A DNA stretch of 64,000 bases, taken from assembly GCA_041611095.1 (NCBI GenBank), contig JBFINP010000006.1, positions 12,394 through 76,393 of the forward strand, read 5' to 3'. This document shows positions 1,785 to 52,560 of this stretch, piece after piece. Under the pieces are notes generated by a model. It searched no databases and had not been told where the DNA came from. It saw only the letters and a list, made by a program, of their open reading frames with translations. The position numbers and the translations under genes were made by a program. The stretch is from Acidimicrobiia bacterium. Its GTDB lineage: Bacteria > Actinomycetota > Acidimicrobiia > Spongiisociales > UBA5794. Numbering within the stretch: position 1 is the first letter of the stretch; each line of letters opens with the position of its first letter.

Positions 1785-4700
1785 GTGACCCACTACGCCG
1801 AGCTCCATTGCCACACCAACTTCAGCTTCCTGGACGGTGCCGCGCATCCCCATGAGCTGGTCGCCCGGGCCGCCGAGTTGGGGTACACGGCGCTGGCGGT
1901 GACCGACCACGACGGTTTTCGCGGTGCCGTCAAGGTTCACGAGGCCGCCCGCGTTGTCGGGCTCCCCGTCGTGTATGGCACCGAGGTGGGGATGGCCCGT
2001 GGGCAGGATGACGGTTCACCCTTCGATCCGCTGGACCGCGTCGAGCCCGAGCCGAAGCCGCGGCCTCGTCGCGGTCGTATTCGCCGCATGCACGGATCGA
2101 AGCCGGTGACGAGAGAGCCCACGGATCACCTCGTGCTGCTGGCCCCCGACCCGGCGGGCTATGCAGCCATAAGCCGTTTCGTGACCCGCGGCCAGTACCG
2201 GGGGGAGAAGGACCGGCCCGTGTACCACTACGACGAGCTCGCCGAGGCGGCGCATCACGGCAACCTCGTGGCGCTCACTGGGTGCCGCCAGGGCGCCGTG
2301 CCCGGAGCGGCGCAGCGGGGCGACCTCCCCGGTGCGATGAAGGAGGCGGCTCGGCTGCGTGAGATGTTCCCTGGACGGCTCTTCGTCGAGCTGTGGCATC
2401 ACGGTTTGCCCGAGGACGACCCGCGAAACGAGATGCTCGTCGAGGTCGCCGCCCGGCTCCGGCTGCCGACCATCGCCACCAACAACGTCCACTACTCCCA
2501 TCGCCGCGACGCCCATCTGTCCGAGGTGCTCGCCGCCGTCGCCGGCAGGCGAGATCTCGCCACGGCCGACGGATTTCGACCCGCCACCGACCTGCGACAC
2601 CTGAGGACTCCCCACGAGATGGCCGAGCGCTTCACGCGCTATCCGGGGGCCGTGGCACGCGCCGCCGAGCTGGGGGAGGCGATGGCATTCGACCTCGACC
2701 TGCTGGCGCCCCAGCTTCCCGACTTCCCGATGCCCGGTGCCTTCACCACCGAAGACGAGTACCTGCGCCACCTCGTCTTCGAAGGTGCACGTGACGTGTA
2801 TCCGGGCACCGGAGAGCACGGGACCGACCCCCAGGCCGTGGTGCGGCTCGAGCACGAGCTCGAGGTCATCGCCGAGCTCGGCTTCGCCGGTTTCTTCCTC
2901 GTGGCCTGGGACATCGTGAGGTTCGCCCGCTCCCAGGACGTCTACTGCCAGATCCGAGGCTCCGGAGCCGACTCGGCGGTGTGCCGGTGCATCGGGCTCA
3001 CCAGGGTCGATCCGATCCGCCTCCAGCTGCCCTTCGAGCGCTTCCTGTCCGAGGAACGCGGGCGCCCCCCGGACATCGACATCGACTTCGAGGCCGAACG
3101 GCGCGAAGAGGTGATCCAGTACTGCTATCGGCGGTACGGCCGGGAGCGGGCGGCGATGGTCGCCAACGTCATCACGTACCGTGCCCGTTCCGTGCTCCAG
3201 GACGTCGGCAAGGCCTTCGGGCTGACCCAGGCGCAGGTGAACGCCCTCACCAAGTACCTCGACACGCACAACCCTCGACAGATCCCGGAGCTGGTCGATC
3301 TTCCCGCCGGCCTCACCTCGGAGCTCATCTATGACGTATGCAACCGCCTCGACGGGTTTCCCCGCCATCTCGGCATCCACTCGGGGGGGATGGTGGTTGC
3401 ACAACGCCCGCTGTGGGAGATCGTCCCGATGGAGTGGGGGCGCATGGAGGACCGCTCGGTGCTGCAGTGGGACAAGGACGACTGCGCTGCGATGGGCATC
3501 GTCAAGTTCGACCTGCTCGCCCTGGGGGCGATGAACGCCCTCCATCTCTCGGTCGACGCAATCCGGGACACCCACGGAGTCGACATCGATCTCGCCACCA
3601 TTCCCCAGGAACCGGTGATCTATGACATGCTCACCCGTGCGGACACCGTCGGGATCTTCCAGGTCGAGTCGAGGGCGCAGATGGCGACGCTCCCGCGGAT
3701 GAAACCCCGGACGTTCTACGACCTCGCCATCGAGGTGGCGCTGATCCGACCGGGGCCAATTCAGGGCCATTCCGTCCATCCGTTCCTGCGTCGCCGCAAC
3801 GGCGAGGAGCCGGTGCGGTATCCACATCCGGCTGCCGAATCGATCCTGAAGAAGACGCTGGGCGTGCCGGTCTTCCAGGAACAGCTCATGGAACTCGCCA
3901 GGGTGTGCGCCGGGTTCACGTCGGGGCAGTCCGACCGGCTGCGTCAGGCGATGACCCACAAGCGCTCGGACGAGGCCATGGCGACGCTGCGTGACGAGGT
4001 GTACGCCGGGATGAGCCGGATCGGTATCACCGGCGCCGCCGCCGACGAGATCTGGGAGAAGCTCCAGGGATTCGCCTCCTTCGGGTTCCCCGAGTCCCAC
4101 TCGGTGTCGTTCGCCTACATCGTCTACGCCGCGTCGTGGCTCAAGTATCACTGGCCCGGCGAGTTCTTCTGTGGTCTGCTCAACGCTCAGCCCATGGGGT
4201 TCTACACACCCAACTCACTCGTTCAGGATGCCGTACACCACGGCGTCGTTGTGCTGCCACCTGACATCAACCGCTCGGAGTTCGACTGCACGATGGAGTT
4301 GGTGGACGCCGACGAGGACGACATCGCCGAGTACCTGGGCATGCGATGGCGGCGGGGGAGGGGCGCCGTCGACGACCCACTGCGTCCGGCCGTTGCGGTG
4401 AGGGTCGGCCTCCGTTATGTGCGCAACCTCGGCGAGACGGAGATAAGCCGCATCGAGGCGGCGCGGATGGTGGGGGGAGTCTTCGGGACCCCCGAGGATC
4501 TGGCACAACGCACCGGCTTGCAGCTCGCATCTCTGGAGGCTCTGGCTGCGTCCGGCGCCCTCGTACCGCTGGGGCTCGGTCGCCGTGAGGGGATCTGGTC
4601 GGCGGGGGCCCTCGCCGGGATGGGGCCGGACCGTCTGGCGCTGGCGCCGGGTACCTCGTCACCCGACTTGCCGTCGCTGACCCGGCCGGAGTCGGTTCAG

Positions 4701-5087
4701 GCAGACCTGTGGTCGACCGGGATCTCGGTCACGCATCCCGTCGCCTTCCTTCGTCATGCCCTCGGCGAATCCGGCTGCCTGACCATTCGGGATGCTCTTG
4801 CTCTCCGACGTCACGGCTTCCGTGCGCGGGTAGGCGGTATCGTCACCCACCGGCAACGACCGGGAACGGCGAAGGGGGTGCGCTTCCTCAACCTGGAGGA
4901 CGAGACGGGCCTTCTCAACGTCGTGGTCCTGCCCCAGGTGTGGGAGGCGCACTTCGAGATCGCCCGAAAGGCGGTCGGGGTCGTCATCGAAGGCGTCCTC
5001 GAGCACCGCGACGGTGTGACCAATCTCGTTGCCCACCGCTTCGAGCACTGGCCCGTCGACGGCATCCGCAGCCGCGACTTCCGATAA
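1785..5087 (+). CDS. dnaE2: Error-prone DNA polymerase DnaE2
   Basis: PHP motif YAELHCHTNFSFLDG, catalytic PDIDIDF, OB fold, C-terminal SRDFR signature of DnaE2, LexA box upstream. Confidence 0.95.
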   Translation: MTHYAELHCHTNFSFLDGAAHPHELVARAAELGYTALAVTDHDGFRGAVKVHEAARVVGLPVVYGTEVGMARGQDDGSPFDPLDRVEPEPKPRPRRGRIRRMHGSKPVTREPTDHLVLLAPDPAGYAAISRFVTRGQYRGEKDRPVYHYDELAEAAHHGNLVALTGCRQGAVPGAAQRGDLPGAMKEAARLREMFPGRLFVELWHHGLPEDDPRNEMLVEVAARLRLPTIATNNVHYSHRRDAHLSEVLAAVAGRRDLATADGFRPATDLRHLRTPHEMAERFTRYPGAVARAAELGEAMAFDLDLLAPQLPDFPMPGAFTTEDEYLRHLVFEGARDVYPGTGEHGTDPQAVVRLEHELEVIAELGFAGFFLVAWDIVRFARSQDVYCQIRGSGADSAVCRCIGLTRVDPIRLQLPFERFLSEERGRPPDIDIDFEAERREEVIQYCYRRYGRERAAMVANVITYRARSVLQDVGKAFGLTQAQVNALTKYLDTHNPRQIPELVDLPAGLTSELIYDVCNRLDGFPRHLGIHSGGMVVAQRPLWEIVPMEWGRMEDRSVLQWDKDDCAAMGIVKFDLLALGAMNALHLSVDAIRDTHGVDIDLATIPQEPVIYDMLTRADTVGIFQVESRAQMATLPRMKPRTFYDLAIEVALIRPGPIQGHSVHPFLRRRNGEEPVRYPHPAAESILKKTLGVPVFQEQLMELARVCAGFTSGQSDRLRQAMTHKRSDEAMATLRDEVYAGMSRIGITGAAADEIWEKLQGFASFGFPESHSVSFAYIVYAASWLKYHWPGEFFCGLLNAQPMGFYTPNSLVQDAVHHGVVVLPPDINRSEFDCTMELVDADEDDIAEYLGMRWRRGRGAVDDPLRPAVAVRVGLRYVRNLGETEISRIEAARMVGGVFGTPEDLAQRTGLQLASLEALAASGALVPLGLGRREGIWSAGALAGMGPDRLALAPGTSSPDLPSLTRPESVQADLWSTGISVTHPVAFLRHALGESGCLTIRDALALRRHGFRARVGGIVTHRQRPGTAKGVRFLNLEDETGLLNVVVLPQVWEAHFEIARKAVGVVIEGVLEHRDGVTNLVAHRFEHWPVDGIRSRDFR

Positions 5088-48198: not shown

Positions 48199-48960
48199 TC
48201 AGTACGCACGCAGCAGACGCAGCGCGGTCTCGGCGTCGTCCCCGATCGCTTTGAGGCCGGTGTCGGCGACGTCCATGCGGTGTACGGCGACGCGGCAGAA
48301 CTCCGATGCGATCCCCTTGATCACGTTCTCGGAGTCGTCGGGGCCGAACACCCACCGTGCGTACTTGGGGCCCATCAGTTGCACGCGCACGCCACCCTCG
48401 GGGAAGGGCTCACCTGCCTGCTCGAAAGCGAAGGGGAGCATGCGGTGCGCCAGCCAGGCAACATGGCGGAGGCGAGGCGAGTCGCCCTCCGGCTCCTCGT
48501 CCTCGTCGACCGGAAGGCGGCCGTCCATCGCCGCCTTGATGTCGAGTCCATGTGCCCACGTCTCCATGAGGCGCAGCGTGGCGAAGGCCTTGGCGCTCAT
48601 CGTCGACAGCACCCACGGGATGCGGTCCTTGGCGTCCATACGGGAGAGCGCATCGACGACGTCGGCCCGGCCGTTGCGCCACCACTCGATCACCTCCTGG
48701 TAGCGCTTCCCGCGTCCCTCGGCGACTCCGCGAGCGGTCCACTCGTCCACGTCCGTCACCGCGGCGGCGTCGACGAACTCCTGGCCTTGCTCGATCGCGG
48801 ACGCAGCAAAGGTCTCGGTGTAGGCGAGGTGGCTCACGGTATCGATGATCGACCAGCCTTCGGCAGGAGTGGCGAGCTGCCAGTCCCGCTCATGGATCCG
48901 CTGCAGAAACTGATCCAGCGATTGCTGCTCGGCGACGAGGTCGGAGAGGATTTCACGCAT
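48199..48960 (-). CDS. Mycothiol-dependent maleylpyruvate isomerase family (TIGR03084-like) metal-binding protein
   Basis: TPAEGWSIIDTVSHLA, RLMETWAHGLD, RLRHVAWL. Confidence 0.87.
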   Translation of the reverse strand: MREILSDLVAEQQSLDQFLQRIHERDWQLATPAEGWSIIDTVSHLAYTETFAASAIEQGQEFVDAAAVTDVDEWTARGVAEGRGKRYQEVIEWWRNGRADVVDALSRMDAKDRIPWVLSTMSAKAFATLRLMETWAHGLDIKAAMDGRLPVDEDEEPEGDSPRLRHVAWLAHRMLPFAFEQAGEPFPEGGVRVQLMGPKYARWVFGPDDSENVIKGIASEFCRVAVHRMDVADTGLKAIGDDAETALRLLRAY

Positions 48961-50156: not shown

Positions 50157-50303
50157 AGCGATGCATAGCGAGCCGGGGTGCTCGTCGGGGGTCGCTCCGC
50201 GACCCCCCACGTTCCGCGGTGCGGTGACTCTGCCGCCGCACCGCACAATGAGCCCGCCGGGAGGCGGTCGCCTGCAACTCGTCCGAAGCCTGCTTCGGAC
50301 GAA
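50157..50303. repeat. Structured intergenic repeat, copy B (inverted relative to copy A)
   Basis: Reverse complement aligns end to end with 5088-5233. Confidence 0.85.
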
Positions 50304-50318
50304 GCTAGGTTTGGGCTG

Positions 50319-50981
50319 ATGCTTGCCCCCGACTTCACGCTCCCTGATCACGCCGCCGAGGACTGGACGCTGTCCGACCAGCGCGGAGCGGCAGTGGTCC
50401 TCCTCTTCCTTCGCGGTGACTGGTGAGCCTATTGCAACGGCCAGCTGGTCAGCGTGGCGCGCAGATACGACGAGTTCACGGGTGCCGGGGCGATCGTGGC
50501 AAGCGTGAGCGTCGACTCCGTCGGCCAGAACGCAGCGATGGTCGACAAGCTGCAATTGCCGTTCCCGCTACTCTCCGATCCTGACCGGAGCGTCGCGGTC
50601 GGGCCCTACGGCGTGGCCGATCCCGTGGACGCTCGCGAGATCGCGCTTCCGACGACGGTCGTGATCGACCCCGCCGGGGCGGAGGTGTGGCGACGTTCCT
50701 CGACAGACTTCGCCGATCGTCCCGAAGAGGACTTGACGCTCGAGGTCGTGAACGCGCTCGACCTGCCCGCCACGACAGCGGCGGCCGTGAAGCGCGGACG
50801 GCCCGAGCCCGGACCGAAGGCGATGCCGTTCGATGCCCTGACGGCGTACTACCGCGGGGCCAAGTTTGCGGCGATCGCCATGGGCCGTCGTTTCCCCGAC
50901 GCGCGCGACACCTCCATGGCCTATGCGGCGCAAATGGACCGTTATGTCGAGGCCGTCCACCAGACGAGGGATCTGCGCTGA
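50319..50981 (+). CDS. AhpC/TSA peroxiredoxin-like selenoprotein (in-frame UGA read as Sec, UxxC)
   Basis: MLAPDFTLPD...LLFLRGDW-[TGA 50424-50426]-AYCNGQL...SVDS...FPLLSDP, one continuous thioredoxin fold. Confidence 0.85.
50433..50463 (+). promoter_or_regulatory. Candidate bacterial SECIS hairpin
   Basis: GCCA-GCT-[GGTC]-AGC-G-TGGC; the G-led apical loop starts 20 nt after the UGA. Confidence 0.6.
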
Positions 50982-51001: not shown

Positions 51002-51640
51002 GTGGCCCACATCGTGTGGGATTGGAATGGGACGCTGCTCGACGACCTCGCCGTAGTGGTCGCCGCCGTCAACGTGTCCCTGGCCGAGCTGGGTGCGCCA
51101 CCGATCGACGCCGACACCTACCGCGACCACTACACGCGGCCGGTCCACCTCTTCTATGAACGCCTCCTGGGACGCCGTCTCTCGCCGACCGAGTGGACCC
51201 AAGTCGACGAGGTGTTCCACGTCGCGTACCGGACCGGGGTCCGTGACGCATACCTGACCATCGACGCCGAACCGGCGCTCCGACAGGTCGCATCGAGCGG
51301 GGCGACTCAATCGTTGCTGTCGATGTGGTGGCACGACGAGCTGCAGCCGGTCATACGCAGGTTCGGGATCGACGGCTTCATGGAGCGGGTCGACGGCAAC
51401 CGCGGCGAGGCGGGGGAGACCAAGCTTCGCCACCTCGCCGCCCATCTCGAGGCCCTCGGGCGCGACCGCGCCGTGGTCATCGGCGACAGCGTCGACGACG
51501 GCCGTGCCGCCCTCGAGCTCGGCCTGCCGTGCGTCATGTACGACGGGGGGTCGCACCACCGCCGGGGCCTCGAGGAGCTGGGGGCGCCGGTCGCCGATTC
51601 GCTCCTCGCCGCGGTCGAACTGGCCAAGGCGCAATGGTGA
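51002..51640 (+). CDS. HAD-family hydrolase
   Basis: WDWNGTLLDD, LLS, K, IGDSVDD. Confidence 0.9.
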   Translation: MAHIVWDWNGTLLDDLAVVVAAVNVSLAELGAPPIDADTYRDHYTRPVHLFYERLLGRRLSPTEWTQVDEVFHVAYRTGVRDAYLTIDAEPALRQVASSGATQSLLSMWWHDELQPVIRRFGIDGFMERVDGNRGEAGETKLRHLAAHLEALGRDRAVVIGDSVDDGRAALELGLPCVMYDGGSHHRRGLEELGAPVADSLLAAVELAKAQW

Positions 51641-52560
51641 TGCACAGGGCGTATCGCGGTCCGGAGGACGTCGGCGCCCTCCAGGCGTTCCAGGCCTCGG
51701 CGATCGAGCGCGCCGACCATCGCGGGTATCTCCACGTCGGGGATGTTGCCCACCGGATGTTCAACGGGCTGCGCAATGAGCCCAATCTGTCCGACCTCAT
51801 GCGTCTATGGGAATCGGACGGGAGGATCATCGCCTGGGCGCTCGTGGAACCGAAGCATCCAGGCTTCGATGCCCAGGTCGACCCGGACGTCCGTCGAGAG
51901 CAACCCGAGCTGGAACGGGAGGTGCTCGAGTGGGCGCAGGCCAGAACCGTCGAGGTTCTCGACGAACAGGGGGCAGGGGCCGGGGAGATCCTCGCCGAGG
52001 TGTTCGACGCGGACGAGCACCGACGGCGGCACTTGCTGGAGATGGGCTGGTCTCCGGGGACCGAGATCTTCGTCCTGACCCGCCGCTCGCTCCGGTCCGC
52101 ACCTGAGCTGAAGCTCCCGCCGGGCTACACGATCCGGCAGGTGCGCGGAACCGACGAGGCCGAAGCCGTCGCCGCCGTCCACGCCGCATCCTTCGGCTCG
52201 GTGTGGCTTCCCGGCCAGTATCGCTCGGTCATGGAGTCGCCGGGCTACGACCCGGAGCGCGAACTGCTGGCGGTGGCGCCGGACGGGGAACTCGCCGGGT
52301 TCACGGTCCTCTGGTACGACGAGCGCAACGGGATCGGGCTGTTCGAGCCGGTAGGTGTCCACCAGGACCACCGGAGACGTGGATTGGGCAGGGCGCTGCT
52401 GGCTGCGGGATGTGAGCAGATGCGTTCGGCCGGTCTCGCCACGGCCACCGTCATGTACGAGGAGGCCAATCCGGCGTCCGGGCCGTTGTACCTGGCGATG
52501 GGCTTCGAACCGGCGTGGCCGATCCGGGACTACCGCAAGGACATCACTCCCGGAAGTTGA
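51640..52560 (+). CDS. GNAT N-acetyltransferase (tandem GNAT)
   Basis: FEPVGVHQDHRRRGLGRAL, NPASGPLY..MGF. Confidence 0.87.
   Translation: MHRAYRGPEDVGALQAFQASAIERADHRGYLHVGDVAHRMFNGLRNEPNLSDLMRLWESDGRIIAWALVEPKHPGFDAQVDPDVRREQPELEREVLEWAQARTVEVLDEQGAGAGEILAEVFDADEHRRRHLLEMGWSPGTEIFVLTRRSLRSAPELKLPPGYTIRQVRGTDEAEAVAAVHAASFGSVWLPGQYRSVMESPGYDPERELLAVAPDGELAGFTVLWYDERNGIGLFEPVGVHQDHRRRGLGRALLAAGCEQMRSAGLATATVMYEEANPASGPLYLAMGFEPAWPIRDYRKDITPGS

Follow-up and report, generated by a model that had tools for sequence, protein, structure and literature searches.

We analyzed a 64,000-nt stretch of the genome of an Acidimicrobiia bacterium (NCBI GenBank assembly GCA_041611095.1, contig JBFINP010000006.1, positions 12,394 to 76,393; hereafter the window), in which a redoxin-like gene with an in-frame TGA codon lies on the plus strand at 50319-50981. 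Under translation table 11 the locus is split into two open reading frame (ORF) pieces, 50178..50426, which stops at the TGA, and 50454..50981, set 276 nt (3 x 92) apart and sharing one frame. With TGA translated as selenocysteine (Sec, U), 50319-50981 gives a continuous product of 220 residues that carries U36 within the sequence FLRGDW-U-AYCNGQ and ends at a second TGA (50979-50981), here an ordinary stop. A preliminary description of the locus, made from the letters alone, had noticed the split at 50426/50454 and the common frame, and had placed the TGA (50424-50426) on the first Cys of a redox motif RGDW-U-AYC; both observations hold in the ORF list and in the translation. We consider it very probable that 50319-50981 is one gene, encoding a cytoplasmic thioredoxin-fold selenoprotein of 220 residues whose UGA at 50424-50426 is recoded as Sec.

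The read-through product is recognized as a single domain. Pfam AhpC-TSA (PF00578) matches residues 3-120 across the TGA (E 3.6e-28, 98.4 bits against a cut-off of 26), and a Redoxin match (E 3.1e-14) likewise spans it and reaches residue 124. None of the NCBIfam models scored above its cut-off, neither PrxU (NF040737, 46.6 against 270) and PrxQ (38.2 against 260) nor the SelL-related redox protein (NF040769, 36 against 120) and WAxxUGC_long (NF041054, 25.6 against 300). Three residues after Sec36 follows Cys39 (codon TGC, 50433..50435), an invariant column and the putative resolving partner of Sec36 in a U-x-x-C site.

Conservation of the in-frame TGA and its Cys counterparts

A six-frame search of 61 genomes, made up of the source genome and 60 relatives, returned full-length matches in 26 of them at 43-100% identity. 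All 26 orthologues carry the in-frame TGA, and in all 26 it falls into the same column of the motif RGD[WF]-U-x-[YF]-C; one orthologue (L036) stems from an unpublished genome (G039), without which the count is 25 of 25. The 35 residues upstream of the TGA are conserved in frame across all orthologues, and both halves of the gene are under protein-level conservation. In 401 genomes sampled evenly across the class there were 45 matches at E <= 1e-25, 42 in the same order and three in other orders (37-39% identity), and an in-frame TGA was counted in every one of the 45, the alignment column being confirmed only for the set of 26 orthologues. No Cys orthologue was present among these matches in the 401-genome Acidimicrobiia sample.

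Cys forms were found elsewhere. A scan of species-representative genomes gave 80 loci, mostly from metagenome-assembled genomes (MAGs) of Acidimicrobiia, with the others from Rubrobacter, Thermomicrobiales, Limnocylindria/Chloroflexota, Dormibacterota and Solirubrobacterales. The motif RGD[WFY][UC]x[YFW]C is present in 59 of the 80, with TGA in 47 motif-bearing loci of named MAGs and Cys in the other 12; the remaining 21 loci fall outside the motif expression and do not enter these counts. The CNGQL segment is kept in five Cys forms (L068, L073, L077, L078, L110), four of which match through residue 219 or 220; RGDWCxYCNGQL is read in five Rubrobacter/actinobacterial loci, and five of the 12 Cys forms count as full-length and orthologue-like. 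Cys also occupies the Sec column in all nine longer, full-length relatives fetched from a library of 1.84 billion proteins (39-45% identity). With full-length relatives and loci that carry Cys at this column, the protein thus has the Cys homologues that classically mark a selenoprotein. The preliminary description had named the residue at this column in homologues as a check on its proposal of Sec recoding, and the TGA of the 26 orthologues together with the Cys forms elsewhere speaks in its favor.

In public databases the family is mostly represented by fragments. Among the best 120 homologues 118 cover only 61-80% of the query (145-186 aa), and the three of these that were read (P0002, P0070, P0081) begin 3' of the TGA. 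The other two (P0019, P0024) are full-length and show W at the Sec column, the outcome of a gene call with TGA=W.

A conserved hairpin downstream of the TGA

Within the coding sequence, just 3' of the TGA, lies a hairpin of the type of a selenocysteine insertion sequence (SECIS), GCCAGCU-GGUC-AGC(G)UGGC (50440..50458), with the 5' arm at 50440-50446, the loop at 50447-50450 and the 3' arm at 50451-50453 and 50455-50458. It comprises 7 bp, with the G at 50454 bulged out. Counted from the final base of the TGA, the stem begins at a distance of 13 nt, and 20 nt intervene before the loop. The stem-loop with a GGTC loop that had been described earlier as starting 20 nt downstream therefore exists, with the distance of 20 nt applying to the loop and 13 nt to the stem. 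The loop begins 21 nt after the UGA, which agrees with a bSECISearch-type rule that calls for a stem-loop with a G in the apical loop and a loop 16-37 nt from the UGA.

The hairpin is conserved at the nucleotide level among the orthologues, which strengthens its earlier designation as SECIS-like. RNAalifold, applied to the 26 orthologues, returned exactly the hairpin 50440-50458. Under this consensus structure 99.5% of cells are paired, and sliding the partners by 1-3 columns lowers the value to 7.7-50.5%. Pair 27/43 covaries (CG in 22 sequences, GU in 2, AU in 2), and the other six pairs hardly vary. An alternative register, GGCC-AGCU-GGUC, seen in folds of 40-50 nt, was rejected for the hairpin type of the window, as column 27 changes to G or A and its would-be partner stays G. 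Stronger evidence than the covariation is provided by the fixed synonymous sites: across 25 orthologues (L035, which contains N, was left out) the hairpin codons are nearly invariant, with G41 as GGC in 22 of 25, Q42 as CAG in 25 of 25, L43 as CTG in 24 of 25, V44 as GTC in 24 of 24 and S45 as AGC in 23 of 24, whereas equally conserved Gly, Leu, Ser and Val positions elsewhere in the protein use 3-6 codons each. We further defined a hairpin rule (at least 6 bp, one bulge allowed, a loop of 4-5 nt whose second and third bases are GU, at a distance of 15-28 nt from the codon) and applied it to 78 distinct sequences. A hairpin of this kind follows the TGA in 63 of 66 distinct Sec forms and is found in none of the 12 Cys forms; the genomic background is 3.6% of 77,888 TGA trinucleotides.

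A comparison with the SECIS element of Escherichia coli fdhF revealed a similar layout. Both are hairpins within the coding sequence just 3' of the UGA, and both have a GGUC tetraloop, located at +22 to +25 in fdhF and at +24 to +27 here. The stem sequence is different, the window hairpin has a bulged G in its 3' strand, separated from the loop by three pairs, and there is no conserved long lower stem back to the UGA. In E. coli, SelB contacts G23/U24 and a bulged U. An Rfam scan of 50300-50600 at E <= 10 gave no bacterial SECIS family and only a chance microRNA match.

Selenocysteine machinery and the reading of the TGA codon

The source genome (157 contigs, 92.7% complete) contains the complete set of genes for Sec synthesis and insertion that the preliminary description had suggested looking for. 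The selA gene (C88:4046-5128, 352.6 bits) adjoins selB (C88:2217-3998, 326 bits as the sum of two matches in frame), a tRNA-Sec with anticodon tca was detected by aragorn on C5, and selD is located at C59:12068-12991 on the minus strand (L009:1501-2424, 386.7 bits). The selD gene has an in-frame TGA of its own in the active-site motif GAGUACK, with GGUC inside the larger predicted loop of a hairpin about 16 nt downstream, which was missed by the filter for GGTC hairpins described below. SelA was detected in 275 of 401 genomes sampled across the class (four of these genomes are flagged as unpublished) and in 44 of the 45 that bear the redoxin gene. Selenocysteine use thus appears common in Acidimicrobiia.

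Other genes of the genome show the same combination of an in-frame TGA and a GGUC-loop hairpin. Hairpins of at least 6 bp with a GGTC-led loop 12-28 nt downstream occur at 841 of 77,856 genomic TGA trinucleotides (1.08%), 130 of them with open frames on both sides. Among these 130 we recognized by eye, besides the redoxin gene, an FdhA-like gene, two DUF3179 paralogues, an AhpD-like gene and a MerB-like gene, in each of which the domain spans the TGA; further candidates of the 130 lie outside this pick, which makes the count a lower bound. The FdhA-like gene (C33:23774-25642, minus strand; L121:1501-3369; TIGR01591, 633.7 bits against a cut-off of 666) carries the TGA in CNRT-U-HAPS, followed by a 6-bp hairpin with a GGUCU loop from +22, where the loop of E. 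coli fdhF begins too. The DUF3179 paralogues (L129:1-1074, minus; L130:1-1065, plus; PF11376, 170 and 183 bits) have it in VTW-U-PLC ahead of a GGCGAU-GGUCC-AUCGCC hairpin, and DUF3179 proteins with UxxC/T appear among the known selenoprotein families in a 2026 review (PMC13188914). The AhpD-like gene, a 'peroxidase-related enzyme' (L131:1-597; TIGR01926, 129.6 against 81.8; PF02627), contains the TGA in NECDY-U-IRAH, a CxxU site, before a perfect 7-bp hairpin, GACCUCC-GGUC-GGAGGUC. In the MerB-like gene (L132:1-816, minus; PF03243, 94.9 bits) an in-domain TGA in IGFT-U-STID precedes a hairpin with a GGUC loop. This motif differs from the CU motif of the published MerB-like selenoprotein SaoL, and the gene may represent a different variant. 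Judged by their sequences, at least seven TGA-containing candidate selenoprotein genes are present in the genome, six with a clean GGUC-loop hairpin and, in addition, selD.

Several observations weigh against recoding by a common hairpin. Covariation is confined to one of the seven pairs, and the four sequences that show it belong to few lineages and do not represent independent events. The NGQL peptide is also conserved in Cys forms, so that the conservation is partly at the protein level. The rule behind the 63 of 66 Sec forms was formulated with the sequences already in view, these sequences are related to each other, and in three Sec forms (L051, L056, L058) the hairpin is only 4-5 bp long. 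In some other subclades the hairpin appears to be shifted upstream by 4 nt and to carry an AGUU(G) loop, so that one structure common to all forms is not established. Neither SelA nor a SelB above the cut-off was found in G047, a gene-bearing genome that is 98% complete in 120 contigs; a Sec-type selD is present, and the lack is likely an assembly gap. No conserved adjoining redox partner gene was found in the flanks of 88 loci or among 12 downstream ORFs checked in other loci. Finally, the 60 nt after the TGA fold at z = +2.1 relative to shuffled sequences and are thus no more stable than these. This last value is no argument against the hairpin, because the established fdhF element (annotated record of E. 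coli K-12; L133:4901-4950, minus strand) itself scores z = -0.08.

Since fdhF is thus no better than its shuffled versions, single-sequence stability was dropped as a SECIS criterion. The fdhF value marks it as a poor test for bacterial SECIS elements.

The split of the gene could also be read in other ways. A nonsense mutation or sequencing error in a pseudogene would agree with the two ORF pieces under table 11 and with the truncation of nearly all database entries, but to this we give practically no credence: on the comparative data it is already refuted by the TGA column of 26 of 26 orthologues as diverse as 43-100% identity, by the 47 further loci with TGA, by the protein-level conservation in both halves and by the conserved hairpin. 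Two separate products, a 35-residue peptide and a 175-residue protein from the GTG at 50454, correspond to how 118 of the best 120 database homologues were called. The shorter protein would however be devoid of strands beta-1 and beta-2 and of the U-x-x-C site of a domain that is continuous in Pfam and in the structural model, all orthologues conserve the 35 N-terminal residues in frame, and the internal start varies among the database calls (P0002, P0070, P0081), which makes this reading extremely unlikely. A UGA read as Trp, Cys or Gly, through a changed code or SECIS-independent read-through, is the choice that some gene callers made for the full-length entries with W (P0019, P0024), and we regard it as very unlikely. 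TGA ends 33 of the 65 distinct Sec-form genes, the one at 50319-50981 among them (21 end with TAG and 11 with TAA), the full Sec machinery is present, the codon occupies a redox Cys position for which Cys forms exist, and the hairpin occurs in TGA forms only. Sec recoding in this lineage, as proposed in the preliminary description, is hence supported by the machinery, the conserved TGA column, the Cys forms elsewhere and the conserved hairpin. In the mechanism that we propose, the UGA at 50424-50426 would not be read as stop during translation, and the GGUC hairpin 13 nt downstream would most likely serve as the binding site of SelB, which would bring Sec-tRNA(Sec) and thereby Sec to the ribosome.

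Fold, active site and relation to known redoxins

An AlphaFold2 model built from a 25-row alignment (predicted local distance difference test, pLDDT, 96; predicted template modelling score, pTM, 0.92) shows a thioredoxin/peroxiredoxin fold for residues 1-146 (50319..50756), the part that also contains the PF00578 match, with helix alpha-1 starting at residue 37. The best structural match in VIA-align is Mycobacterium tuberculosis AhpE (5id2_A; Z 20.0, root-mean-square deviation (rmsd) 1.5, 146 residues aligned), followed by BcpB and Bcp1; ResA (2f9s) matches at Z 15.9, and all structural neighbors from VIA-align and Foldseek cover residues 1-150 only. In profile alignments U36 coincides with the first Cys of the CxxC in ResA and, in peroxiredoxins (Prx), with the Ser/Thr of the PxxxT/SxxC motif, and C39 coincides with the peroxidatic Cys of Prx (2cx3, 2ywn, 6j13). 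In the same three alignments R32 occupies the column of the catalytic Pro and U36 that of Thr/Ser, and P111 (family consensus 'alp') stands on the catalytic Arg before strand beta-6 (2cx3 KRAVF), so that the Prx Pro, Thr/Ser and Arg are all absent. The predicted protein thus has a peroxiredoxin shape but a thioredoxin-type U-x-x-C site; its earlier naming as peroxiredoxin-like is right for the fold and does not extend to the catalytic residues.

The relations to the known families follow from this pattern. With BCP/AhpE-type Prx (AhpE 5id2, BcpB 5epf, Sulfolobus Bcp1/Bcp4) the protein has the fold of residues 1-150 in common (Z 19-20, rmsd 1.5-2.0, 143-146 aligned), whereas Arg32, Sec36 and Pro111 stand in place of the catalytic Pro, Thr/Ser and Arg and the C-terminal helices are unmatched by any listed chain. 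The W-C-x-x-C of the ResA/TlpA oxidoreductases matches W-U-A-Y-C position by position (3c71). ResA and TlpA are extracytoplasmic and anchored in the membrane; the window protein, as read from its sequence, has no N-terminal signal or anchor. PRX_like2 of the Conserved Domain Database (CDD; cd02970) is described by a CxxC whose second Cys is at the peroxidatic position and by the lack of the other catalytic residues, and the residue pattern found here would fit this description.

Judged by domain and motif, the gene is a genuine selenoprotein gene of the already known Prx-like UxxC class. That AhpC/TSA-type proteins with UxxC form a recognized selenoprotein class had been stated from the outset, and this is confirmed by three publications: the 2026 review lists a 'Prx-like thiol:disulfide oxidoreductase, PF00578, UxxC/UxxU' as well as a 'Redoxin family protein, PF08534, UxxC' and a cd02970 UxxS family (PMC13188914), Table 2 of the Global Ocean Sampling (GOS) study gives Prx-like 1 (pfam00578, UxxC) with 225 Sec and 2,740 Cys sequences (PMC2398784), and a Prx-like UxxC family is listed in Deltaproteobacteria (PMC1794560). 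Like the members known from the Sargasso Sea, the GOS metagenomes and Deltaproteobacteria, the window protein scores above the PF00578 cut-off, has Sec first in U-x-x-C and has many Cys homologues, and in both cases function is predicted by computation only; the likeness to the published example WP_010940744.1 is one of domain and motif. It differs from the class in the RGDW-U-x-YC-NGQL sequence, in a C-terminal two-helix domain of about 75 residues, in occurring only as the Sec form in the sampled Acidimicrobiia and in reaching none of the curated NCBIfam selenoprotein models. In the available text of a preprint on Actinomarina, peroxiredoxin and AhpC each have 0 mentions.

The C-terminal part forms a helical hairpin in the model (50829..50975; helices 171-191 and 193-219) with a conserved MDRY, in agreement with the helical extension recognized earlier; the segment YYRGAKFAAIAM (residues 176-187) lies in helix 171-191. 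No Pfam family was assigned to this part, and no solved structure among the Foldseek and VIA-align matches, lists filled by the redox domain, covers the helices. In seven of eight Dormibacterota/Chloroflexota loci (L090-L094, L098, L103) the redox ORF ends at about 147 residues and the helical part is a separate ORF in another frame, reading …LEPYMRGAKFA… and located closely behind the redox ORF (L090:3091-3649). In L090 it apparently starts one base after the redox stop, as read from two translated frames. The existence of this separate ORF suggests that the C-terminal module is an autonomous partner module.

Little of the gene neighborhood is conserved. In the window the gene is accompanied by an MDMPI_N/DinB-type protein (48199-48960, minus strand), a LOG-family protein, an HAD hydrolase, a GNAT acetyltransferase (about 51637-52560, plus strand) and DUF520; no more than 5 of 88 loci share these neighbors, with synteny limited to the closest relatives. 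The MDMPI_N/DinB and GNAT families include mycothiol-linked enzymes. Among the 12 downstream ORFs checked in other loci the gene differs by subclade, and hence no operon partner is indicated: the RGDF-U subclade has a LutA-type CCG protein in four loci (L050:3660-4400, L058:3676-4407, L064:3667-5789, L074:3667-4395), followed in L064 by a LutB-type ORF (LUD_dom), the QLASL subclade has an AI-2E transporter in five (L051, L053, L056, L061, L063; about 3700-5000), one ORF is a SulP permease and one had no family. An all-against-all clustering of flanking ORFs was abandoned due to spurious high-GC frames.

As for function, Sec36 is located just before helix alpha-1, at the site of the attacking N-terminal Cys of the thioredoxin/ResA-type CxxC, and Sec36 and Cys39 would most likely cycle between the selenol/thiol and the selenenylsulfide. 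From these sequence correspondences we infer a thiol-disulfide (or sulfenate/peroxide-reducing) oxidoreductase rather than a classical peroxiredoxin. A true Sec peroxidase, with Sec36 attacking the peroxide as in glutathione peroxidase and Cys39 as the resolving residue, is the main competing reading and in our view rather unlikely. It gains from a fold closest to AhpE, BcpB and Bcp (Z 19-20, rmsd 1.5-2.0, likewise by Foldseek), from Cys39 at the peroxidatic position and from Sec being a good peroxide nucleophile, but only one of the four Prx active-site residues is kept (Arg32 takes the place of Pro, Sec36 that of Thr/Ser and Pro111 that of Arg), W-[C/U]-x-x-C aligns equally well with the ResA CxxC, and the Prx models of NCBIfam (PrxU, PrxQ) remain below their cut-offs. 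For the oxidoreductase that we prefer, the two-helix domain, which packs on the redox domain in the model, would probably serve as a substrate- or partner-binding module. Only tentatively do we go further and suggest that the family is a distinct two-module selenoenzyme, in which the redox domain always comes with a dedicated helical partner of about 75 residues, fused in Acidimicrobiia and Rubrobacter and encoded by a separate, tightly adjoining gene in Dormibacterota/Chloroflexota, and which acts on a specific substrate where Cys cannot substitute. A specific substrate would be expected because the partner is dedicated and because every sampled Acidimicrobiia form has Sec; it may be linked to the low-molecular-weight thiol system of these actinobacteria.

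With these results the established picture of Sec insertion and of the protein class stays as it was. Their value lies in the correction of annotation and in a SECIS consensus for the lineage: the clean GGUC hairpin can be used for a lineage-specific SECIS model, and a protein subfamily that is widespread in Acidimicrobiia turns out to be missed by curated models and misrepresented in public databases, since 118 of the best 120 entries are fragments without the active site and the other two have the wrong residue in it.

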